Shown in pieces: positions 296 to 13,005 of a stretch of 64,000 nucleotides of DNA. The notes beneath the pieces are model-generated. The model did no database searches and had not been told where the DNA came from. It saw nothing but the letters and a program-made list of their open reading frames with translations. The DNA lies in the NCBI GenBank assembly GCA_035629865.1, contig DASPHC010000055.1, positions 134,940-198,939 on the forward strand. The letters are read 5' to 3'. This DNA comes from Thermoanaerobaculia bacterium. Its GTDB lineage: Bacteria > Acidobacteriota > Thermoanaerobaculia > Gp7-AA8. Positions within the stretch are counted from its first letter, which is position 1. Each line of letters starts with the position of its first letter. The position numbers and the translations under genes were made by a program.

Positions 296-415
296 TTCTC
301 TGGGCGCGGCGTGCGCGTTCTGCTTAGAATGCGCGCTGACTGGGGACTCGCCTTCAGATCTTCGAAACCCAACGACTCATCCTTACGTAGTAAGCCCGTG
401 TTTGGGAGGACTTGC

Positions 416-2095
416 ATGACCGCTGTTCGACGGTTGATCACAACTTTGCTGGTGACGCTCGCGGCGACCGTACTGCTCGCGCAGGAGACCACGGCCCCAC
501 GGGCGGCGACCGAGACGGTTACCGCCGAGACGGACCAGGACGCAGCAAATCCGAGAGCGCTGCAGCTCTCGCTCGACCAGGCTGTTCGCACTTCCATCGA
601 ACGGAACCTCGGCGTCCGGCTGCAGGAGTTCGAGTACCAGGAAGCCGGCTGGGGCCTCCGCTCGCAGTACGGCATCTACGACTTTCTCGGCGTCGGCCGG
701 CTGCAGGAAGTGGGCTCTCAGTCGGCGGGAACCTCGTCGATCCAGGCATCGGCGGAACGGAACGTCTCGGCACGCTTCGGCGTGCAGCAGAACCTTCCGA
801 CCGGCGGCAACTACGAGGTTTCGTTCGGGACCAACCGCGACGTCAGCACGGGCGGCGTCTCCACCTTCAGCCCGTTCTACGGCCAGCGCCTCGGGTTCAA
901 CTTCGAGCAGCCGCTGCTCCGTGACTTCGGCATCGACGTCAATCGCCGCGGCATCACCATCGCCCGCAACACTCTGGGCATCAACCACGAGACTTTCCGC
1001 ACCGCCCTGATGGACACCGCGGTCTCGGTCGAGCAGGGGTACCTGAACCTGATCTACGCCCGCCGCCGCGTCGACGTGGTCAAGGAATCGCTCTTCCTGG
1101 CACGCGACCAGGCCCGCATCACCCAGATCCGCATCGACGTCGGCGCGTCCGCGCCGCTGGACATCCTCCAGCCGCGTGTGACCATCGCCACGAGCGAAGA
1201 GCAGCTCATCATCGCCGTCGCCGACGTCCGTGAAGCCGAGGACCAGCTCCGCGGCCTGCTGCACCTCGATCCCGCGGAGTGGGATCGCCCGATCATCCCG
1301 ACCGACGCGATCGAGTACACCCCTGTGGCGATCGACACGGCTGACGCGGTGCGCCGCGCGTACGAGCTGCGGCCCGAGCTCCGCCAGGACCGCCTCGCCA
1401 CGGATACGCGCCGCGTGCAGTACCTCTACGCCCGCAACCAGACCCTCCCGGTGCTCGACCTCGACCTCGACTATGGCCTCTCCGGCTTTGCCGGCACGCG
1501 CCGCGCAGGCGGCGTGGTCGAACGGATCCCGTATGGACGCGGACTGAGCAACATCGCCGAAATGGACTTTCCGGGCTGGACGATCGGCTTCAACGTTGGC
1601 GTGCCGCTCACGAACATCGGTCCGCGCGCCGAGGCGCGCCGTGCGGAGCTCGACCTTCGCCAGTCCGAGCTGACGCAGGAGCAGACCCGCCAGAACGTCG
1701 CCCTCGACGTGCGCGGCGCCGCACGCGACGTCGACACTGCTGCCCGCTCCATCACCGCCACCCGCGCCGCGCGCGATGCGGCCGAGCGGAACGTCGAGGC
1801 GGAGCGCCGCCGCTACGAGAACGGCATGACCACGAACTTCCAGGTGCTGGAAGTGCAGCAGCAGCTCTCCGACGCCCGCATCCGCGAGCTGCAGGCGCTG
1901 GTCGGTTACAACCAGGCGGTGGCCCGTTACCACCGCGCGGTCGGCGACGTCCTCGACGTTCGCGGCATCAGCGTCGACATCCCCGAGCTCCCGGAAGAAC
2001 CGCGTATCTTCAGCAATCTGGATCGGTACAATTGGCTGAACTACGGAAGCCGGGTCGATCTGGAGGAGCAGCCGAATGACGACGGGAAACCTTGA
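416..2095 (+). CDS. TolC-family outer membrane efflux protein
   Basis: Signal peptide LLVTLAATVLLAQE. Two OEP repeats with conserved LSLDQAV and SIERNLGV motifs. The ORF is about 560 aa. Confidence 0.8.
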   Translation: MTAVRRLITTLLVTLAATVLLAQETTAPRAATETVTAETDQDAANPRALQLSLDQAVRTSIERNLGVRLQEFEYQEAGWGLRSQYGIYDFLGVGRLQEVGSQSAGTSSIQASAERNVSARFGVQQNLPTGGNYEVSFGTNRDVSTGGVSTFSPFYGQRLGFNFEQPLLRDFGIDVNRRGITIARNTLGINHETFRTALMDTAVSVEQGYLNLIYARRRVDVVKESLFLARDQARITQIRIDVGASAPLDILQPRVTIATSEEQLIIAVADVREAEDQLRGLLHLDPAEWDRPIIPTDAIEYTPVAIDTADAVRRAYELRPELRQDRLATDTRRVQYLYARNQTLPVLDLDLDYGLSGFAGTRRAGGVVERIPYGRGLSNIAEMDFPGWTIGFNVGVPLTNIGPRAEARRAELDLRQSELTQEQTRQNVALDVRGAARDVDTAARSITATRAARDAAERNVEAERRRYENGMTTNFQVLEVQQQLSDARIRELQALVGYNQAVARYHRAVGDVLDVRGISVDIPELPEEPRIFSNLDRYNWLNYGSRVDLEEQPNDDGKP

Positions 2096-2840
2096 GTCTC
2101 CGGGCGCAGGCGCGCCTGTCCAACCGCCGAAGAAGAACGTGTTCGCCAGAATCGCGGGGGTGCTGTTTTCCCCCGCGGAAACGTTTGACGATATCGCCCG
2201 CCGGCCGGACATCATCGGGCCGCTGCTGATCATTCTCGCCATCGGATACGTCACGACGTTCCTGGTCATGCCGCATCTCGATTTCGAGGCGTTGGCAATG
2301 CAGCAGGCCGAAGCGATGAGGAAGCAGAATCCCAACATGGGCGAAGGCGACGTCGAGCGGGTCGCCAGCATGACCAAGACATGGGGCCGGGCGATGGGCT
2401 TCGTCGGTCCGGTGCTCGGGGTGTTCTGGTACCTCATCGTCGCGGCCGTCCTTCTGGGTGCGTCCCGTGCGATGGGAGGGGCAGGAGACTTCAAACAGGC
2501 GCTGTCCACGACGCTCTACGCCTGGATGCCGCTGGTGCTTTACGGCATCATCGTCACGGTGATCGTCATGGCGAAGGGAATGGTCGACCCTTCGCAGATG
2601 GCGACCGTGGTGAAGTCGAATCCGGCGTTTCTGACGGATATGAAGGAGCAGCCGATTCTTTTCTCGCTCCTCTCCTCGTTCGACATTTTCACGATCTGGA
2701 CGATCATCCTGATGATCTTCGGCTTCTCCGCCTTCTCGAAGTTTTCGCGGACGAAATCGGCCGCGATCGTGGTCTCTTTGTGGTTGGTGATCATCGTCGT
2801 CAAGCTTGGGTTCGCCGCTCTGGCGGCCTCGAGAGCCTAG
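2076..2840 (+). CDS. Yip1-domain integral membrane protein
   Basis: N-terminal FSPAETF...IARRP motif of the Yip1/DUF1282 family, followed by five hydrophobic helices. The start overlaps the TolC stop. Confidence 0.6.
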
Positions 2841-2850
2841 AACGGAACCT

Positions 2851-3546
2851 ATGAGCGCAATGCCCGATACCCAGCCGGCCCACCTGATCGAGATGCACGA
2901 ATTGACGCGCGTCTACGACCTGGGCCCGCAGCAGATCTTCGCCCTTCGCGGCGTGAACCTGATCATCGAGCCGGGGGAGTATGTCGCCATCATGGGACCC
3001 TCCGGCTCGGGCAAGTCGACGTTGATGAACGTCATCGGCTGCCTCGACACGCCGACGTCGGGGTCGTATCTGCTCGACGGCGTGCCGGTGGAGACGCTCA
3101 ACGACGACGAGCTGGCCGCGATCCGCAACCGCAAGATCGGCTTCGTCTTCCAGACCTTCAACCTGCTGGCCCGCACGACGGCGCTGCAGAACGTCGAGCT
3201 GCCGCTCGTCTACGCCAAGATCTCCCGCACCGAACGCCGCCAGCTCGCCGAAGAGGCGCTGGTGGCGGTGGGGCTCGGAGACCGCATGAGCCACCAGCCG
3301 AACGAGCTCTCCGGCGGCCAGCGCCAGCGCGTCGCCATCGCCCGCGCGCTGGTGAATAAGCCGTCACTGCTGCTCGCGGACGAGCCGACGGGGAACCTTG
3401 ATTCGCAGACCGGACGGGAGATTCTCGACCTGTTCCAGGAGCTGCACTCGAACGGCAACTCGATCATCATGGTCACGCATGAGGATGATGTGGCGAAGGA
3501 AGCGAAGCGCATCATTCACATCCGCGACGGGAAGGTGAAGGATTAG
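2851..3546 (+). CDS. ABC transporter ATP-binding protein (MacB/LolD-like)
   Basis: Walker [13 protein letters not shown] signature LSGGQRQR and Walker B LLLADEPT are present. Confidence 0.85.
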
Positions 3547-3557
3547 GCAGAGCACGC

Positions 3558-3643
3558 GATAGGACGAATAGGACTGATAGGACCTATAAGACGTATAGGA
3601 CTCCGATCGTCCTATCAGTCCCATAGGTCCTATCGGTCCTATG
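3558..3643. repeat. Intergenic palindromic repeat cluster (ATAGGAC x4-5 facing GTCCTAT x4)
   Basis: Seen directly. Left-half ATAGGAC copies and right-half GTCCTAT copies form a long imperfect hairpin. The same family is at 7914, 11645 and 43597. Confidence 0.7.
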
Positions 3644-3723
3644 ATCTCGACGCGCCTTCTCGAAGTCGGGAATAACACTGTTTGCACCCTTGGCACGCCT
3701 CGCGAAATGCCTTTTCGCGCAGG

Positions 3724-5559
3724 ATGGTTACACCCGCCGTGCTCACCCGAAAATTCAAGTTGTTCGTTGCGCTCGCTTTCGTCTGTCTGACGTCCGCGTC
3801 GACGCTCTCGGCTGCGGAGAAGATGCCGCTGTCGCAGGTCGAGAAGGGGATGAAGGGCTATGGCCTGACTGCCTTCGAGGGGACGAAGCTCGAGAAGTTC
3901 GACGTCGAGATTCTCGGCGTGCTGCACAACATCGGGCCCGGCCAGAACCTGATTCTGGCACATGTCGACCATCCGGTCATCCGCCGTGCGGGGGTCATCG
4001 CCGGCATGTCGGGATCGCCGATCTTCCTCGACGGCAAGGTCATCGGTGCGCTCGCGTACGCTTGGCAGTTCTCCAAGGAACCGGTCGCGGGCATTACCCC
4101 GATCGACGAGATGCTCACGCTCTCTTCCCGCCGGCTCGCGCCGAGCGGGGCCACTCCGGCGGGCGCCGTCCCACGCATGACCGCAACCGAGCTCCTGAGC
4201 GCGGTATCGCGGTCGAAGCCGGAAGAGGCCTTCGACAAGTTCATCAAGAACCTCGCCGCACCGGTCAGCGCCGTCAGCGGAGCCAGGCGGATCTCGATGC
4301 CGATGTCGGTCTCCAGCTTCAGCCCGGAGACCGTCCAGCGCTTCTCGCCTTATTTCGAACAGATGGGCTTCGTCGCCGTGCCGAGCGGTACCGCGACGGC
4401 CTCGGCTTCGACCGGCAGCAAGAGCAAGTTCAGCCCCGGCGATCCGATCGGCGCGGTGCTCCTCACCGGCGATCTGAACGTGGCGGCGACCGGTACGGTG
4501 TCGTGGGTCGACGGAAATAACGTCTACGCCTTCGGCCATCCGTTCCTCGACATGGGGGAGATCAACTTCCCGATGGCGACGTCGGAAATCGTGACGGTGC
4601 TGCCCAGCCTGGCCAGCTCATTCAAGTTCTCCAATACCGGCCCGATCGTCGGCGTCCTGCAGCAGGACCGCGCCGCCGGCATCATGGGCGTTCTCGGCGA
4701 GAAGCCGCAGATGATCCCGGTCGAGGTGACGCTCAACGGCTCCGGCCCCGAGCAGGCCTACAAGGTCAACCTCGTCCGTCACACGACGCTCTCGCCGCTG
4801 ATCCTGGCCATGGTCGCCGACTCGGTGGTCGCCAACGCCCAGCGGGCGGCGGGCGAGCGGACGGTGCTGATGGACGCGGAGATCCAGCTCAAGGGCTTCG
4901 AGCCGATCCGCCTCCGCGAGGGATGGGCCGGCGCGCAGGCGCGCCAGTCGATTCCGCAGTACCTCGCCGTGATCTCCGGCTACATGATGTCGAACGAGTT
5001 CAGCCCGACGGAGATCGAGAGCATCAAGATCCGTCTCCATCACGACGACGAGCTTCGCATTGCCCGCCTCATGGAAGCGTCGCTGGTGATGCCGGACAAG
5101 GGCCGCGTCTCGCCGGGCGACGTCGTCAAGGTGCGCACCGTCCTCAAGCCGTTCCGCGGTGAGTCGTTCGTCGAGACCTTCGACGTCCGGATCCCCGAGG
5201 ACCAGCCGGCCGGGCCGGCGTACCTGCTGGTGGGAAGCGGCTCGGTGATGAACGCCGTCGACTTCACACTCGTGCCGCCCGATCCACGGACGCTCCAGCA
5301 GGTCATCGGCGTCCTGGAGCGCCTCCGCCCGGCGACCGACCTCACCGTCGGTCTCTACTCGACCGGTGAAGGAGCGGTGACCTCCGGCGTGTATCTCCCG
5401 AATCTTCCGCCGTCGATGCAGGCGGTGGTCAGTGCGGACACGTCGAACGGACCGCAGGCGGTGGTGAAGTACCACCCCACCAAGCATGACGCCAAGCCGC
5501 TCGGCTACATCGTCGACGGCGCGCTGAAGATCGACCTCAACGTCAAACCCCAGATCTAG
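3724..5559 (+). CDS. Secreted peptidase S55 (SpoIVB-like) family protein
   Basis: Signal peptide FVALAFVCLTSASTLSA. The GMSGSPIF segment resembles the S55 serine-protease core. The ORF is long with consistent codon bias. Confidence 0.55.
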   Translation: MVTPAVLTRKFKLFVALAFVCLTSASTLSAAEKMPLSQVEKGMKGYGLTAFEGTKLEKFDVEILGVLHNIGPGQNLILAHVDHPVIRRAGVIAGMSGSPIFLDGKVIGALAYAWQFSKEPVAGITPIDEMLTLSSRRLAPSGATPAGAVPRMTATELLSAVSRSKPEEAFDKFIKNLAAPVSAVSGARRISMPMSVSSFSPETVQRFSPYFEQMGFVAVPSGTATASASTGSKSKFSPGDPIGAVLLTGDLNVAATGTVSWVDGNNVYAFGHPFLDMGEINFPMATSEIVTVLPSLASSFKFSNTGPIVGVLQQDRAAGIMGVLGEKPQMIPVEVTLNGSGPEQAYKVNLVRHTTLSPLILAMVADSVVANAQRAAGERTVLMDAEIQLKGFEPIRLREGWAGAQARQSIPQYLAVISGYMMSNEFSPTEIESIKIRLHHDDELRIARLMEASLVMPDKGRVSPGDVVKVRTVLKPFRGESFVETFDVRIPEDQPAGPAYLLVGSGSVMNAVDFTLVPPDPRTLQQVIGVLERLRPATDLTVGLYSTGEGAVTSGVYLPNLPPSMQAVVSADTSNGPQAVVKYHPTKHDAKPLGYIVDGALKIDLNVKPQI

Positions 5560-5560
5560 G

Positions 5561-5715
5561 CATGAGGTACGGGGTACGAGGAATGAGTGAGCACAGGCCT
5601 GCTCCTGCCGACGACCTCGTACCTCGTACCACTTCCGCGACAGCAGAGAGCCTGGAGATGAGTTAGGGTGCCGGTCGGCACCTCGTACCTCATGCCTCGT
5701 ACCGCATACCCCCGC
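5561..5715. repeat. Intergenic inverted repeat (GAGGTACG / CGTACCTC arms)
   Basis: catgaggtacggggtacgagg at the 5' side and cctcgtacctcatgcctcgtacc at the 3' side are reverse complements. Confidence 0.5.
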
Positions 5716-5733
5716 CGTTTTGGAAAGGAAATC

Positions 5734-7905
5734 ATGCGCCGATTCATCATCCTGATCTCGGCTCTCGTCGTTGCTACACACGCGCTCGCCGTCGCGCCGC
5801 AGTTCTGGCGCGTCGGAGCCGCCGAAGAGTTCCTGGCCGGCGAGCTCGAAGGCTTCGCCGTCACCTCGCGCGGAGAGCTGCGTGTCGCGCCGGCGATGAA
5901 GAAAGTCGCCTCCTTCACCGACCCGTTCGTCCTCTCCCAGACGGTTGCGCCGAACGGGGACCGTTTCTTCGGCACCGGCAATGACGGCAAGGTCTACCGC
6001 CTGCGCGGCGAAGAGCTGAAGGTGCTGTTCACCGCGCCGGAGCCGGAGATCTACGCCGTCTCCTTCGCGAACGGAGCCCTGCTCGCCGGCAGCTCGCCGA
6101 ACGGCAAGGTCTATCGCATCGATCCGGAGAGCGGCCAGCAGAGCGTCTTCTTCGAGCCGAAGCAGGCCTACATCTGGGCCATTGAGCCCGCGGGCAGCGA
6201 CGTCCTGGTCGCCACCGGCGTCGAAGGGCAGCTCTTCCGCGTTTCTGCAAAGGGCGAGGGCAAGATCTTCTACGACTCGGCCGACACGCACATCCGCTCG
6301 GTCGCCGTGCGGAAAGACGGGACCATCCTGGCCGGCGGGTCCGGCAAGGGACGCATCTATCAGATCGGCCGCGACGGCGCGGCCATCGCACTGTTCGAAT
6401 CGCCGCTGAACGAGATCACCGCGATCTACGTCGACGCCAACGGCACCGGCTGGGCGGCGGGGGCGAGCAACGTCCTGCCGTCGACCGCGCCGAAGACGCA
6501 GCCGAAGAGCGGCAGCGGCTCGCAACAGCAGCAGGGATCCGGCCAGTCGGGCTCCGGCGAAGCGAAGAAGGAAGGGGAGGCGACTCCGACCGTCGAAGTC
6601 TCGTTCTCCTTCGACGACTCCACCGCCACCGCGGCCTCGCAGGCCGGCTCGGCGGAGATCTATCGCATCGATGCCGACGGCTTCGTCGACACGGTCCGCA
6701 AATTCGAGCGCGAGATGATCTACGGCCTGAGCGGCGGTCCAAACGGCTCCATCCTCGTCGCGACCGGCCCGAACGGCCGCGTCTATGAATTGAGCGGCGG
6801 CGAGGTCGCTCTCGTCGGCGCCGTCCCCGAAAAGCAGGTGGTCTCCATCTCCGGCTCCGGCAACACGGCTCTGATCACCACCACCAACACCGGTGCGGTC
6901 TACCGGATGGAAGGGCGCAGCGCCGCCACCGCGGAGTTCCGCTCGGTGGCGAAGGACGCGGAGCGCTTCTCGCGCTTCGGCAACTATCGGATCGAAGGGC
7001 GCAACATGCCGGCCGGCTCGGTCGCCGTCTCGTTCCGCAGCGGCAACACCCGTACGCCCGACGCGACGTGGAGCAACTGGACCGCTCCGCAGTCGTCGCT
7101 CGAAGGGAACGTCGGCGCTCCCGCCGCGCGGTACATCCAGTGGAAGTTGACGCTGCCGAAGCCGGCCGCCGATGCGTCGGTCGACCACGTCACGGTCGCG
7201 TTCATGAACCGCAACGTGCCGCCGGAGATCGAGGCGGTCGGCGTGCAGGAGCCGGCCGTGGTCTTCATTACTTCGGCCTATCCCTCGGCGCCGCAGGTCG
7301 TGGAGGCGACGAATCCCGACGAGTACGGGATCTTCACGAGTCTCGACAATCCGCGCGAGCGCGCCGTCGCGGAGCAGGGGAAGCGGATGTTCCGCAAGGG
7401 CTTCCGCACCGTCTCCTGGCGCGCCAGCGACGACAACGGCGACACCATCCGCTACACCCTCTCGTTCCGCCGGAAGGGGAGCGAGCAGTGGCTGCGCCTC
7501 CGCGAGAACATCGAAGAGACGCAGATGAACTTCGACACCTCCCAGCTTCCGGACGGTCTCTACGAGCTGCGCCTCGTCGCCAGCGACGCCTCGGACAATC
7601 CGGAGATGCCGCTGACGGATACACGGGACGGGGTCGAGTTCCAAGTCGACAACACCGCGCCGAAGATTGCCGTCGCCACGAACGGCAGCGACGTGACGGT
7701 GCGGATCACGGATGACGTCTCGCCGATCGGCCGCGTCGAATACTCGGCCGACGCGGAGAAGTGGATCCGCATCCTCCCGGTCGACGGCATCGCCGACTCG
7801 CGCGACGAGACGTTCCGCCTCGACCGCAAGAGCGTGGACGGCAAGTTCGTGGTGGTCCGGGCGGTCGACGCGCAGTACAACGTGACCACCGAGTCGGTAC
7901 GGTAG
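5734..7905 (+). CDS. Secreted beta-propeller protein (two-component-regulator-propeller-like repeats plus Y_Y_Y/Ig-like C-terminal domains), no kinase or receiver domain
   Basis: RBS plus signal peptide RRFIILISALVVATHALA. The N-terminal region has repeated GKVYRL, GKVYRI, GRIYQI and GRVYEL blades. A Gly/Ser/Gln-rich linker follows. The C-terminus resembles Y_Y_Y domains (TVSWRASDDNGD, YELRLVASDASDN). Confidence 0.6.
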   Translation: MRRFIILISALVVATHALAVAPQFWRVGAAEEFLAGELEGFAVTSRGELRVAPAMKKVASFTDPFVLSQTVAPNGDRFFGTGNDGKVYRLRGEELKVLFTAPEPEIYAVSFANGALLAGSSPNGKVYRIDPESGQQSVFFEPKQAYIWAIEPAGSDVLVATGVEGQLFRVSAKGEGKIFYDSADTHIRSVAVRKDGTILAGGSGKGRIYQIGRDGAAIALFESPLNEITAIYVDANGTGWAAGASNVLPSTAPKTQPKSGSGSQQQQGSGQSGSGEAKKEGEATPTVEVSFSFDDSTATAASQAGSAEIYRIDADGFVDTVRKFEREMIYGLSGGPNGSILVATGPNGRVYELSGGEVALVGAVPEKQVVSISGSGNTALITTTNTGAVYRMEGRSAATAEFRSVAKDAERFSRFGNYRIEGRNMPAGSVAVSFRSGNTRTPDATWSNWTAPQSSLEGNVGAPAARYIQWKLTLPKPAADASVDHVTVAFMNRNVPPEIEAVGVQEPAVVFITSAYPSAPQVVEATNPDEYGIFTSLDNPRERAVAEQGKRMFRKGFRTVSWRASDDNGDTIRYTLSFRRKGSEQWLRLRENIEETQMNFDTSQLPDGLYELRLVASDASDNPEMPLTDTRDGVEFQVDNTAPKIAVATNGSDVTVRITDDVSPIGRVEYSADAEKWIRILPVDGIADSRDETFRLDRKSVDGKFVVVRAVDAQYNVTTESVR

Positions 7906-7913
7906 CAGCGCTG

Positions 7914-8012
7914 GACGAATAGGACCTATGGGACGAATAGGACTGATAGGACCAATGGGACTCCATGGGTCCCATCGGTCCTATTCGTCCCATTGGTCCC
8001 ATTTGTCCGATA
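7914..8012. repeat. Intergenic palindromic repeat cluster (ATAGGAC/GTCCTAT family, with GGGACC/GGTCCC variant units)
   Basis: Same family as 3558..3643. gacgaataggacctatgggacgaataggactgataggacc faces ggtcccatcggtcctattcgtcccattggtccc. Confidence 0.7.
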
Positions 8013-8042
8013 GCCTACCGGCCTGCACCGTATAATCGCTGC

Positions 8043-9683
8043 GTGGTGAGACTTCGTCCGCTCGTCCTGCCGCTGCTGCTTCTCTGCCTCGCCTGCGGCG
8101 GACCGGGCGAGAAACCGGTGGCCGATACTGCTGCGCCGCCTCCGGTCGTGGACGACCAGCCGCGGGACGGCGGGACGCTCTACCGCCGGCTCGACACTGA
8201 CATCGCCACCCTCAACCCCGTCGTCTCGACCAGCCGCTCCGACCGTCTGGTCGCGAACCTCCTGTTCACCCCGCTGATTTACATCGACCGCGACCTGCAG
8301 CCGATCCCCGGCCTGGCCGACTCCTGGGAGATCTCCGACGACGGGCTGCTGTACACCTTCGACCTCAACCCCAAAGCGACGTTTTCCGACGGCAGGCCTG
8401 TCCGGCCGCGCGACGTCATTTTCACGCTCGAGAAGATCCTCGATCCGAAATCGGAGGCGGTGCAGATCACCGGCTCCTTCGACCTGCTCGACGTGGCCCG
8501 CACCCGCGTCGTGGACGAGGACACCGTCGAGATCGCGTTCAAGCAGGCGCTCGCCACGCAACTCATCAAGTTCAATGACGTCATCATCGTCCCGGAGCAT
8601 GTCTATGCCCCGGGCAACTTCCGGAAGGACTACAACGACCGCGCCGTCGGCAGCGGCCCGTACCGCCTGGTGCGATGGGTGCCGGGGAAAGAAGTGGTCG
8701 TCGAGCGCCGCGCCGATTACTGGGGGAAGCGGCCTTACATCCAGACCGTCGTCTTCAAGGTGATCGGCGACCATGGCACCGCGTTCAACGCGCTCAAGCG
8801 GGGGGAGCTCGACGAGAGCATCGTCCCCTCGGACACCTGGTGGCGCGAGCGCAACAACCCGGAAGTGACCAAGAAGATCGAGTTCCAGCGCTTCTACACG
8901 CGGAACTACAACTTCATCGCCTGGAACAACCGCAACCCGCTCCTGAGCGACAAGCGCGTACGGCGCGCGCTGGCCATGAGCATCCCGATCGAGAGCATCA
9001 TCAAGGACATCTTCCACGACACCGCGCGCGCCATGACCGGCCACTTCACGCCGGACGAGTGGGCGTACAACCCCACCGTCCCGGCCATCCGTCACGACCT
9101 CGACGGGGCACGGAAACTTCTCGCCGCGGCCGGCTTTGTGGACAGCAACGGTGACGGTGTGGTCGAGAAGAACGGCCGCCCGTTCAAAATCTCGATCGTG
9201 ATCATCGCCGGCAGTTCGACCGCCCAGCAGATCGCGCAGATGGTCCAGGCGGAGCTGAAGAAAGTAGGCGTGCAGCTCGACATCGCCCTGATGGACGGCG
9301 CGATGGCCATCACCCGCATCCTGGCCGGCAACTACGAAGCCGCGTACCTGTCGTGGGACCTCGATCCCGATCCCGATCCGTACATCCTCTTCCACTCCTC
9401 GCAGATCCCGCCGCGCGGCCAGAACGTCGTCTACTACACGAACCCCGAGGCCGACCGGCTCATCGACGCGGCCCGGCGCGAGCTCGACGCCGGCAAGCGG
9501 AAAGACCTCTACTGGAGGCTCCACGAAGTGCTTTCCGAGGACCAGCCGTACGCCTGGATCGTGCAGGTGTCGGCAAAATGGGCCATGAGCAAGCGCGTGC
9601 ACGGGGTGGTGCCGAGCCGCGGCTTCGGCCTCTTCAACTGGTACCCCGCCGAGAACGACTGGTGGATCGCGCCGGAGCGATGA
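8043..9683 (+). CDS. ABC transporter substrate-binding protein, family 5 (peptide/nickel type), lipoprotein
   Basis: GTG start. Lipobox LLLCLACGG. SBP_bac_5 architecture with YRLVRWVPGKEVV and a C-terminal AWIVQ motif. Confidence 0.85.
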   Translation: MVRLRPLVLPLLLLCLACGGPGEKPVADTAAPPPVVDDQPRDGGTLYRRLDTDIATLNPVVSTSRSDRLVANLLFTPLIYIDRDLQPIPGLADSWEISDDGLLYTFDLNPKATFSDGRPVRPRDVIFTLEKILDPKSEAVQITGSFDLLDVARTRVVDEDTVEIAFKQALATQLIKFNDVIIVPEHVYAPGNFRKDYNDRAVGSGPYRLVRWVPGKEVVVERRADYWGKRPYIQTVVFKVIGDHGTAFNALKRGELDESIVPSDTWWRERNNPEVTKKIEFQRFYTRNYNFIAWNNRNPLLSDKRVRRALAMSIPIESIIKDIFHDTARAMTGHFTPDEWAYNPTVPAIRHDLDGARKLLAAAGFVDSNGDGVVEKNGRPFKISIVIIAGSSTAQQIAQMVQAELKKVGVQLDIALMDGAMAITRILAGNYEAAYLSWDLDPDPDPYILFHSSQIPPRGQNVVYYTNPEADRLIDAARRELDAGKRKDLYWRLHEVLSEDQPYAWIVQVSAKWAMSKRVHGVVPSRGFGLFNWYPAENDWWIAPER

Positions 9684-10669
9684 CCTCGTATCTCCTCCGG
9701 CGCCTCTTCTATGCAGTCCTGACGTTCTTCGGCATCACCGTCGCCACCTTCGTGCTGATCCACAGCGTGCCGGGCGACCCGGTTACTTTCTTCATCGGAC
9801 AGCAGGGGCTGCGCAACATCCCGCCCGAGACGGTGCAGGCGATCCGTGCGGAGTTCCATCTCGACGAGCCGCTGCCGAAGCAGTACGTCCGCTGGGTCGG
9901 GGCGGCAGTGACGCTCGACTTCGGGATCTCGATCATCGACCGCCGCCCGGTACGCGAGCGGATCTTCGAGAAACTGCCGAATACCTTCCAGCTCAACTGC
10001 GTCGCCTTCTTGCTGGCGGCACTCTTCGGCGTTCCGATCGGCCTCTGGAGCGCGACCCGCTCCGGCCGGCCGGCCGAACGGATCTCGGCCGTCGGCTTCT
10101 TTCTCCTCTATTCGCTGCCGAGCTTCTGGGTGGCGCTGCTGCTGATGCAGTTCTTCTCGGTGAAGCTCGATCTCTTTCCGCTGCTCGGTATGACCTCGGA
10201 CAACTACACCGAGCTGTCGGCCGCGGGACGGTTCACGGACCGGCTGAAGCATCTCGTGCTGCCGGTGGTCACGCTGGCCTACGCGCAACTGGCGATCTTC
10301 GCGCGCTTCTCCAAGTCGGCGCTGACGGAAGTGATCCGGCAGGATTTCATCACCGCTGCGCGGGCGAAAGGCGCCGGGCCGGCCAAGGTGCTGCTGCACC
10401 ACGCGCTCCGCAACGCCCTGATTCCGCTGATCACGCTCCTCGGGATCACCATCCCGTACCTGATCTCCGGGAGCGTGATCGTCGAGAAGATCTTCCAGTG
10501 GGACGGCATCGGCCTGCTATACCTGCAGTCGATCTTCTCGCGCGACTATCCGATGGTGATGGGGCTGACGGTGGTGACGGCGATCGTGACGCTGCTGGCG
10601 AATCTCCTGGCGGACGTGCTCTACGCCGTCGCCGATCCGCGGGTGAGGCTGGGGGAGGGGCATGACTGA
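9680..10669 (+). CDS. ABC transporter permease (DppB/OppB-like)
   Basis: ATGA overlap with the substrate-binding protein stop. N-terminal YLLRRLFYAVLTFFGITVATFVLIHSVPGDP is typical of BPD_transp_1. Confidence 0.85.
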   Translation: MTSYLLRRLFYAVLTFFGITVATFVLIHSVPGDPVTFFIGQQGLRNIPPETVQAIRAEFHLDEPLPKQYVRWVGAAVTLDFGISIIDRRPVRERIFEKLPNTFQLNCVAFLLAALFGVPIGLWSATRSGRPAERISAVGFFLLYSLPSFWVALLLMQFFSVKLDLFPLLGMTSDNYTELSAAGRFTDRLKHLVLPVVTLAYAQLAIFARFSKSALTEVIRQDFITAARAKGAGPAKVLLHHALRNALIPLITLLGITIPYLISGSVIVEKIFQWDGIGLLYLQSIFSRDYPMVMGLTVVTAIVTLLANLLADVLYAVADPRVRLGEGHD

Positions 10670-11645
10670 TTCCGGCATCGACTCCCTCTGGCGGCTGACC
10701 TGGCGCCGTTTCCGGCGGAGCAGACTGGCGTCGCTGGCGTTGCTCTACGTCGGAATCATCACCGCGCTGGCACTGCTCGCGCCGCTGGTCGCGAACCGAA
10801 AGCCGCTGCTGCAAAGGACGGCGGCTGGCTGGAACTCGCCGGCGCTGACCGACTTCTGGATCGCCGATCCCGACATCGACCTTCCTCCGGTCGAGACGAC
10901 GTTCGCGCTGCCGGCCCCGGTGGCGTTCTCCCCGAACACGATCGCGCTCGCCTCGCGCCTGATGCCGCCGGGCGGCGGGCATCTCCTCGGTACGGACGAT
11001 CTCGGGCGCGACGTGCTGTCGCGGATGATCCACGGCGCGCGGGTGTCGCTGACGGTCGCCTTCTTCGCCACCTTCATCGCGCTGCTGGTCGGCTCGTTCC
11101 TCGGCGCGCTCGCAGGCTACTACGGCGGCGGGGCCGACTGGATCATTTCCCGCCTCATCGAGGTCGTCCTCTGCTTTCCCTTCCTCTTTCTCGTCCTCGG
11201 CATCGTCGCGCTCTTCAAGCCGTCCATCCTGACGATCATGATCGCGCTGGGGCTGACGTCGTGGACGAGCGAGGCGCGCTACGTGCGCGGCGAGCTGCTG
11301 CGCATCCGGGACATGGAGTTCGCGCACGCCGCCCGGGCCAGCGGCGCCGGCGATGCCCGCATCGTGTTCCGGCACCTGCTGCCGAACGCACTCGCGCCGG
11401 TGATCGTCTCCGCCAGCTTCGGCGTCGCCTACGCCATCCTTACCGAGTCCGCCCTCTCGTTTCTCGGCCTCGGCGTGCCGCTGCCGACGGCATCGTGGGG
11501 AAGCATCCTCACCGCCGCCAACGAGCACATCGACTACGCCTGGTGGCTGATCCTCTTCCCCGGAATGGCGATCTTCACGACCGTGGCCGCGTTCAACGTG
11601 ATCGGAGAAAGATTCCGGGAGGCGCTGGATCCGAGGAGCGATTGA
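10662..11645 (+). CDS. ABC transporter permease (DppC/OppC-like)
   Basis: Overlaps the upstream permease. The EAA-like loop ARASGAGDARIVFRHLLPNA is present, with six transmembrane segments. Confidence 0.85.
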   Translation: MTDSGIDSLWRLTWRRFRRSRLASLALLYVGIITALALLAPLVANRKPLLQRTAAGWNSPALTDFWIADPDIDLPPVETTFALPAPVAFSPNTIALASRLMPPGGGHLLGTDDLGRDVLSRMIHGARVSLTVAFFATFIALLVGSFLGALAGYYGGGADWIISRLIEVVLCFPFLFLVLGIVALFKPSILTIMIALGLTSWTSEARYVRGELLRIRDMEFAHAARASGAGDARIVFRHLLPNALAPVIVSASFGVAYAILTESALSFLGLGVPLPTASWGSILTAANEHIDYAWWLILFPGMAIFTTVAAFNVIGERFREALDPRSD

Positions 11646-11675
11646 TGGGACCTATAGGTCCTATCAGTCCTATCA
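11645..11675. repeat. Partial copy of the ATAGGAC/GTCCTAT palindromic repeat
   Basis: gggacctataggtcctatcagtcctatc lies between the dppC-like stop and the coaD stop. Confidence 0.6.
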
Positions 11676-12725: not shown

Positions 12726-13005
12726 AAATCAATGGATGCGTCATCGAAATCGACGGCCGCGCTGTCGAATTGATGGCTGCGTCATCGAAATTGGTAGCCA
12801 TGTCATCGAAATCGATGGTGATGCAATCGAAATCGATGGCGATGCAATCAAAATCGATGGCCATGCAATCAAAATCGATGACCATGCAATCGAAATCGAT
12901 GGCGATGTCATCAAAATCGATGGTGATGTCATCGAAATCGATGACGATGTCATCGAAATCGATGGTGTTGGCATAGAAAACGATGGCGGCGCATGAGAAA
13001 TCGAC
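12726..13005. repeat. Tandem direct repeat array, 21-bp unit x about 13 (consensus ATGCAATCGAAATCGATGGYG)
   Basis: Seen directly. Contiguous head-to-tail 21-mers with point variants, open in all six frames. Located in a convergent intergenic gap. Confidence 0.9.

Follow-up and report, generated by a model that had tools for sequence, protein, structure and literature searches.

Introduction

SpoIVB is the sole characterised member that MEROPS lists for peptidase family S55, which belongs to clan PA (PMC3944710). In the crystal structure of SpoIVB reported in 2025, Asp363 lies 24 Å from His236 and its role was questioned (PMC12502668). Beyond the remark of one catalogue that the family is 'widely detected' in acidobacteria (PMC8841776), the literature searched contained nothing on S55 proteins outside sporulation. 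Here we describe two adjacent genes, denoted p1 and p2, from a 64-kb stretch of contig DASPHC010000055.1 (the window, with positions counted from its first nucleotide). The p1 protein is related to the S55 peptidases and is predicted to be an exported serine protease, without a PDZ domain and apparently with the two barrels of its core in permuted order. The p2 protein is its dedicated propeller partner and the pair is conserved across the Acidobacteriota, a major soil phylum.

Adaptor-dependent envelope proteases such as Prc-NlpI and CtpA-LbcA, and peptidases gated by a propeller (tricorn, prolyl oligopeptidase and PorU-PorZ), combine a serine (or cysteine) peptidase with a non-catalytic repeat partner or domain that selects the substrates. 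By analogy p1 and p2 may share with Prc-NlpI, CtpA-LbcA, tricorn and PorU-PorZ the logic of an exported peptidase acting with a non-catalytic repeat partner, the p1-p2 relationship being known from genetic coupling. None of these proteins is homologous to p1 or p2, however, the proteases being from unrelated families (S41, S9 and C25), and in the Prc, CtpA and tricorn-type systems the adaptors are either TPR lipoproteins or a propeller fused to the protease.

Results

Two exported proteins encoded side by side

Both open reading frames that a sequence-only reading of this DNA had placed at 3724-7905 were confirmed. They lie on the forward strand, as do all the features within them, and together fill this span exactly. 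p1 (3724-5559) encodes 611 residues, with the NCBI start five codons later, and p2 (5734-7905) encodes 723. p1 is identical (100%) to an NCBI protein of a Thermoanaerobaculia bacterium annotated as 'SpoIVB peptidase S55 domain-containing protein', and p2 is identical (100%) to the hypothetical protein VEK57_11310. The source of both is a 241-kb contig of a metagenome-assembled genome (MAG) of a non-sporulating member of the Thermoanaerobaculia (Acidobacteriota). Both are genuine genes. Among the representatives of clusters at 50% identity p1 has 6828 relatives, mostly full-length at about 600 residues, of which 2277 score below 1e-30. For p2 there are 1362 relatives. The GC content of the window is ~65%, and no paralogue of p1 or p2 was found elsewhere in its 64 kb.

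Read from the sequence, both proteins start with a cleavable-looking Sec signal peptide, with positive charge, a hydrophobic stretch and an A-x-A-type site (...TLSAA/EK in p1 and ...THALA/VAPQFW in p2). That of p1 spans residues 1-31 (3724-3816; MVTPAVLTRKFKLFVALAFVCLTSASTLSAA), with a helix predicted at 8-25 in the model described below. No lipobox Cys is seen in either signal, and both proteins are predicted to be periplasmic or extracellular. By Pfam neither contains transmembrane (TM), kinase, receiver or PDZ modules; the earlier statement that TM, kinase and receiver modules and a sporulation context are missing therefore held, for the latter on inspection of the neighbouring genes.

The Ser-bearing barrel of p1 is homologous to that of SpoIVB

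The Pfam family Peptidase_S55 (PF05580) matches p1 with 42.6 bits, against a gathering cut-off of 25, and also matches all of 34 diverse p1 relatives. The match is limited to profile positions 117-201 of 210, corresponding to residues 38-123 of p1. The only solved relative of p1 is the crystallised chain of SpoIVB from Bacillus subtilis (9lnf; E 1e-7), residues 223-308 of which are aligned. The Ser-bearing barrels of the two proteins are homologous, with 27% identity, and share the nucleophile motif G-M-S-G-S/A-P. GMS96GSP of p1 aligns with the mutated GM(A378)GAP of 9lnf, which is the position of Ser378 in SpoIVB. The counterpart of GMSGSP in chymotrypsin is GDSGGP. The identification of p1 as a secreted S55-like protein is supported by these matches, although they cover the Ser-bearing barrel only.

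A model of p1 was calculated with AlphaFold2 from a diverse alignment of 147 sequences (pLDDT 92.3, pTM 0.90). In this model there are two six-stranded barrels, at residues 44-126 and 241-324, with a helical and small-beta insert at 127-235 between them. The first barrel (residues 38-126; 3835-4101) carries the GMSGSP motif (4003-4020; Ser96 codon 4009-4011) and is the counterpart of the C-terminal barrel of SpoIVB. It follows directly behind the signal peptide, so that the space upstream is too small for the His-bearing half of the protease. Searches with Foldseek superpose the model on 9lnf with a probability of 1.0 and an rmsd of 3.2 Å over 104 columns. The clan-PA matches comprise SpoIVB, Rv3671c, 3C proteases, MucD, trypsins and the viral S39 and NIa proteases, and every one of them spans 100-135 columns, equivalent to a single barrel.

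Conservation was assessed in an alignment of 147 sequences that are 27-37% identical to p1, except for one closer relative at 54%. Strictly invariant residues (147/147) are Gly94, Ser96, Gly97, Ser98, Pro99, Gly108, Gly249, His272, Gly278 and Gly465. Asp250 (145/147) and Asp315 (146/147) are nearly so, and are candidates for the acid residue (codons 4471-4473 and 4666-4668).

The His-bearing barrel apparently follows in swapped order

The second barrel (residues 236-326; 4429-4701), whose strands at 241-324 are modelled with a pLDDT of ~96, carries the invariant His272 (codon 4537-4539). This lies directly after the third strand of the barrel in the model, as it does in the N-terminal barrels of the chymotrypsin fold. 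The Ser barrel is thus first and the His barrel second in p1, the reverse of the collinear S55 order, with an insert of 105 residues between them that sets p1 further apart from SpoIVB. A construct in which the two blocks were exchanged (p1 residues 232-330 followed by 36-130) was aligned with the SpoIVB family profile using hhalign. The SpoIVB sequence used was identical to that of 9lnf except at two Ala positions of the chain (GMAGAP), the S378A mutation and residue 380. The swapped construct gives a single collinear alignment of 162 columns, as compared with 94 columns in the native order, and pairs His272 with His236, Asp250 with Asp213 and Ser96 with Ser378. Within it G-D250...A-T-G-T-V-S-W...A-F-G-H272 of p1 falls on R-D213-S-A-A-G-I-G-T-M-T-F...A-L-G-H236 of SpoIVB. 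His272 meets His236 in the swapped order only; in the native order there is a second match that is not collinear, between 301-324 of p1 and 276-299 of SpoIVB. Exchanging the halves also widens the alignment to the Pfam S55 profile from positions 117-201 to 77-193, with a gain of 4.7 bits, and a hidden Markov model of the His barrel scores 10.1 bits on SpoIVB in HMMER, whereas the best of 2000 shuffles scores 7.5.

Both proteins have a G-T-x-T...G-H motif at the histidine, with an Asp 22-23 residues ahead of it (Asp250 in p1, Asp213 in SpoIVB). All of 37 SpoIVB sequences have the R-D-S motif that contains Asp213, and this motif aligns with G-D250 of the p1 family. Asp315, on the other hand, falls on a position occupied by Asn or Ser in SpoIVB. 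On the basis of the profile alignments, the shuffles and the secondary structure of the model, it is probable that the S55 core of p1 is circularly permuted. The two barrels would be packed as in other clan-PA proteases in spite of the exchanged order, with Ser96 and His272 forming the putative active site. To our knowledge no natural circular permutation of a clan-PA serine protease, with its chymotrypsin fold, has been described before, and a literature search for permuted chymotrypsin-like proteases gave nothing relevant.

The insert linking the two barrels (residues 127-235; 4102-4428) is poorly conserved and variable in length in the alignments and has no match to a PDZ or any other Pfam domain, whereas Bacillus homologues of SpoIVB carry PDZ families. 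Beyond the second barrel p1 has ~280 residues that are additional to those of SpoIVB (330-611; 4711-5556). They are confidently modelled as three further domains, of alpha/beta and beta-sandwich type, which extend to residue 611. This region has conserved motifs at Gly465, Pro491, LP562xS564 and Gly599 and no Pfam or PDB sequence relatives.

Although p1 is exported, as is SpoIVB, and is related to S55, it lacks several features of SpoIVB proper. The domain order differs, there is no PDZ domain, Asp363 is not conserved in the family, and the score against the NCBIfam equivalog model of SpoIVB (TIGR02860) is 37.4 bits, where the cut-off is 305. Its host does not sporulate, there is no SpoIVFA, BofA or BofC context and no sporulation gene lies near p1.

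p2 consists of a propeller and Ig-like domains

The N-terminal two thirds of p2 contain seven repeats of the type G-T/S-G-x-x-G-K/R-V/I-Y-R-I/L. These would form a seven-bladed Reg_prop/PQQ-like beta-propeller at residues ~22-395 (5797-6918), the blades being counted from the sequence motifs. A low-complexity loop (residues 247-305; 6472-6648), of variable length in the alignment, is inserted in the fifth repeat. The p2 family profile matches both designed and natural propellers of PQQ and WD40 type in the PDB (Cake, 1e-48; 3hxj, 4e-20; PkwA, 3e-14), in agreement with the propeller repeats proposed earlier. Their assignment to Reg_prop (PF07494) holds for most of the family, with 37 of 41 p2 relatives matching (best E 2e-15), while the copy in the window itself stays below threshold (E 0.05; 14.3 bits, cut-off 20.4).

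The propeller is followed by a middle domain (residues 400-495; 6931-7218) with the motif R-S-G-N-T..PD.TWS.W...ARY.QWK, in which Arg435, Gly437, Pro442, Trp446, Trp449, Arg466 and Gln469 are nearly invariant. It has no Pfam match and is presumably a beta-sandwich. At the C-terminus are two Ig/FN3-like domains (residues 552-640 and 641-723; 7387-7902) with a series of conserved Asp and Asn residues: Asp566, Asp570, Asp618, Asn622, D639-N640-x-x-P643, Asp660, Asp684, Asp688 and Asp712. Here there are sub-threshold matches to Big_3_3 (E 2e-4) and fn3, and FN3 chains in the PDB are matched; Big_13 and Big_3_3 are each found in 9 of the 41 relatives. No enzyme or catalytic family was matched in p2 by Pfam, by the PDB profile search or among the 41 relatives.

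The C-terminus had been likened to the Y_Y_Y domains of Bacteroides hybrid sensor kinases, making p2 a hybrid kinase ectodomain without its sensor modules. This proved to be a 'motif-level impression', since Y_Y_Y (PF07495) was not matched by the C-terminal fragment at E <= 10 or by the whole of p2 at E <= 0.1 and the domains are generic Ig/FN3-like ones. Nor does Y_Y_Y appear for the 41 relatives among the 25 listed of their 31 matched families. What p2 does have in common with the ectodomains of the hybrid sensors is the Reg_prop-type repeats of most of its relatives, and the p2 profile gives weak matches to the structures 3ott, 3va6 and 4a2l that are restricted to the propeller part. The sensors, however, have two propellers where p2 has one, of about seven repeats, and p2 lacks the Y_Y_Y, TM, HisKA/HATPase, receiver and HTH_AraC modules (Pfam), its Ig-like domains being the last part of the chain, which stops at residue 723. 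Unlike the sensors it is soluble and secreted, and it is genetically coupled with a protease.

p1 and p2 are kept together across the Acidobacteriota

Loci were surveyed through p1 in one genome per species of the Genome Taxonomy Database (GTDB), those with enough downstream DNA being testable. p2 lies directly 3' of p1 on the same strand in ~55 of the 74 testable loci, with p2 proteins that are 27-35% identical. The paired loci come from Thermoanaerobaculia, Aminicenantes, Vicinamibacteria, Terriglobia, Bryobacteraceae, Solibacteraceae, Polarisedimenticolia, part of the Blastocatellia and one Latescibacterota MAG. Mostly the stop codon of p1 and the start of p2 are separated by between -4 and ~60 nucleotides, a spacing that resembles that of an operon. 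In two divergent p1 members the downstream gene, of 724 residues in one and truncated by the contig end at 333 residues in the other, also matches p2.

A reciprocal survey through p2 recovered 80 metagenome loci, of which 64 have at least 1.9 kb of upstream sequence and the other 16 are too short. p1 is immediately upstream on the same strand in all 64. With p1 also occurring alone, this is the pattern expected of an accessory subunit for p2. The co-occurrence and synteny of the two genes in distant relatives support a functional pair, and what had been described from a single genome as an unusual pairing is the normal arrangement across the Acidobacteriota. Taken with the S55 and propeller matches, each of the findings on which the pairing had been made to depend is in place. 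The module would be ancestral to this phylum, in which it is widespread.

Two apparent p1-p2 fusions (1321 residues in locus L015 and 1257 in L046) were rejected as artefacts. They arise in high-GC DNA, where the p2 frame runs on over p1 for a long stretch without a stop codon, and they are not in the frame of the p1 match.

In the window a hairpin built of GGTACGAG and CCTCGTACC units lies between p1 and p2 (5565-5625, forward strand; ΔG -38 kcal/mol, z -3.5). It is missing from most relatives, in which the gap between the genes is very short.

Neighbouring genes and repeats

Genes of an Opp/Dpp-type peptide importer follow on the forward strand (7965-11645; SBP_bac_5, PF00496, E 1e-83). These are a lipoprotein solute-binding protein (signal ...LLLCLA-C), which extends to 9683 with its true start near 8040, and two permeases (~9680-10669 and 10662-11645). 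There are no adjoining ATPase genes in the window, the next gene being coaD on the opposite strand. Besides the Opp genes, no other conserved neighbour of the pair was found in the surveyed loci. Genes for an alpha/beta hydrolase, a MobA-like protein, a short-chain dehydrogenase/reductase (SDR), an aminotransferase, an epimerase, anthranilate synthase, GidB and Lon-N were considered as parts of the module and rejected as lineage-specific housekeeping genes.

The genes upstream, at 311-3546, are those of a TolC-like outer-membrane factor (PF02321), of an overlapping membrane protein with a Yip1 domain and of an ABC ATPase of the MacB/LolD type. In one relative (L001) a MacB_PCD/FtsX permease is found directly 5' of p1 in place of this group. 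The TolC, Yip1 and ATPase genes were likewise rejected as module parts, as they are not conserved with the pair. A PADLOC scan for defence systems gave no match and a scan for promoter and terminator consensus sequences gave nothing above chance.

Long, perfect-looking hairpins immediately follow three stop codons in the window: that of the ABC ATPase (hairpin at 3553-3645), that of p2 (7911-8010) and that of the second permease (11646-11672). Their arms are composed of tandem 9-nucleotide units, (TAGGACNNA)n, and TAGGACNNATAGGAC is matched 19 times where 0.29 matches are expected. Folding energies are -49.6 kcal/mol (z -5.8) and -74 kcal/mol (z -12.3). With their periodicity of nine nucleotides the hairpins resemble REP-like or terminator-like elements, and they give rise to spurious 'GPIGPIGP' and 'SYxSY' reading frames. 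A separate tandem array at 12740-12988, between a TPR gene and a polyprenyl synthase gene, contains about ten copies of a 21-bp unit, GTCATCGAAATCGATGGCCAT (84% matches), with a ATCGAAATCGAT motif; on both strands several reading frames stay open across it.

Discussion

We consider it reasonably likely that p1 and p2 together make up an extracytoplasmic protease with a non-catalytic adaptor. In this proposal p1 would be exported via Sec and act as a Ser/His endopeptidase of the SpoIVB lineage (S55, clan PA) with a permuted double-barrel core. Judging from the sequence and the model, this core would run from the Ser96 barrel with GMSGSP through the insert of ~105 residues to the His272 barrel, the third residue probably being Asp315 or Asp250. 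There would be no PDZ domain, and ~280 residues of extra domains beyond the core. p2, devoid of a catalytic motif, would be exported to the same compartment. There its propeller and Ig-like domains would most likely recruit the substrate or gate p1, in the way that NlpI serves Prc, LbcA serves CtpA and PorZ serves PorU. The two proteins, whose genes are coupled, may form a physical complex in which p2 would be the adaptor. The preferred guess for the substrates would be proteins of the envelope or the extracellular space, and in the Thermoanaerobaculia the products may feed the adjoining Opp-type importer.

A number of observations weigh against this proposal or parts of it. For the permuted core, the His barrel taken alone is a weak match in hhalign, with an E of ~0.003, a probability of 11% and a score that is also attained in 3 of 300 shuffles. 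As an isolated fragment (p1 227-325) it has no Pfam match, and the swapped construct gains only 1.3 bits against TIGR02860, in which the His barrel is not recognised. The identity of the acid residue, Asp315 or Asp250, is ambiguous from the alignments. Of the S55 catalytic triad for which a check had been proposed, the Ser and the His are present and invariant, but at Asp82, which aligns with Asp363 of SpoIVB, an Asp is kept in only 9 of the 147 relatives; this agrees with the distance of Asp363 from His236 in the SpoIVB structure. As regards the pair, roughly one in four p1 genes lacks a p2 in the adjoining 8 kb (in Pyrinomonadales, Chloracidobacterium and some Blastocatellia), from which it follows that p1 can work alone. 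No true p1-p2 fusion was found among the loci, the strong hairpin described above stands between the two genes in the window, the adjacency of the Opp genes is limited to a few lineages, and no experimental literature on the pair was found.

One alternative concerns the role of the two proteins and leaves their chemistry as proposed. p1 and p2 might digest external proteins as nutrients, with p2 binding the polymer and the Opp-type importer taking up the peptides. In addition to both being exported, a solute-binding protein of the SBP_bac_5 family and two permeases are found directly downstream of the pair in the window, in nine loci of Thermoanaerobaculia, in one of Polarisedimenticolaceae and in one of Terriglobia, and the importer is a possible functional associate of the module. 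Most lineages, however, keep the pair without Opp genes beside it. Secreted nutritional proteases usually form expanded and variable families, whereas the pair appears to be a single conserved copy near housekeeping genes (coaD, gidB, lon and aminotransferases), and no secretion-system or CTD signal was seen. A nutritional role would seem unlikely.

The occurrence of p1 without p2 in some lineages also implies that p2 is dispensable for catalysis. Given that p2 was not found without p1 in the sampled loci, which would fit any accessory role including inhibition, p2 could be an inhibitor or chaperone that keeps p1 inactive, following the logic of BofC, or the two could be independent proteins that are merely co-transcribed. 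A multi-domain propeller and Ig protein of 723 residues is nevertheless large for a dedicated inhibitor, and the strict one-sided dependence across a deep divergence speaks against independent functions, so that we regard both of these as fairly improbable.

The distant homology to SpoIVB underlies the proposal that p1 is a signalling-type protease. It would cut a membrane-anchored regulator and so set off regulated intramembrane proteolysis, with p2 sensing a ligand and licensing the cut; Reg_prop repeats are a usual feature of the domains with which hybrid sensors bind ligands in the periplasm. This description of p1 does not stand up well to the missing PDZ domain, the equivalog score far below its cut-off or the gene context, in which no sporulation gene lies nearby and, over 160 loci, no site-2 protease, anti-sigma factor, ECF sigma factor or other regulator is conserved beside the pair. 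With no Y_Y_Y, TM or kinase module present either, a signalling role is improbable. Finally, although PorZ delivers the acceptor for PorU in type IX secretion, the idea that p1 is a sortase-like transpeptidase or attachment enzyme to which p2 brings a glycan or lipid acceptor would be an analogy only, between peptidases paired with a Reg_prop-type propeller protein, and is highly improbable given that the clans differ (Ser/His of clan PA in p1, Cys/His of C25 type in PorU) and that the neighbourhoods showed neither type IX secretion genes nor CTD signals.

The protease with its adaptor therefore remains the reading that we favour, and what is new here is an S55 protease without a PDZ domain, apparently permuted and with a dedicated propeller partner, that is conserved across a major soil phylum. 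More tentatively, and with some doubt, the p1 family may be a naturally circularly permuted clan-PA serine protease with an obligate propeller and Ig partner, which would make the pair an envelope proteolytic machine of the Acidobacteriota, phylum-wide and not recognised before, with its own means of substrate selection. If this were true, the acid residue of p1, whether at the position of Asp250 (Asp213 in SpoIVB) or of Asp315, might be informative about the third catalytic residue of SpoIVB, which is in dispute. A confirmed swap of the barrels would provide an instructive example, found in nature, of a circularly permuted chymotrypsin fold, and the S55 family would be extended well beyond sporulation. 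Current database labels describe these proteins only as 'SpoIVB peptidase S55 domain-containing' or 'hypothetical/WD40'. In soil the Acidobacteriota rank among the most abundant bacteria, and little is known of the biology of their envelope; an exported protease-partner pair that is conserved, apparently in single copy, in most classes of the phylum provides a testable handle on it.

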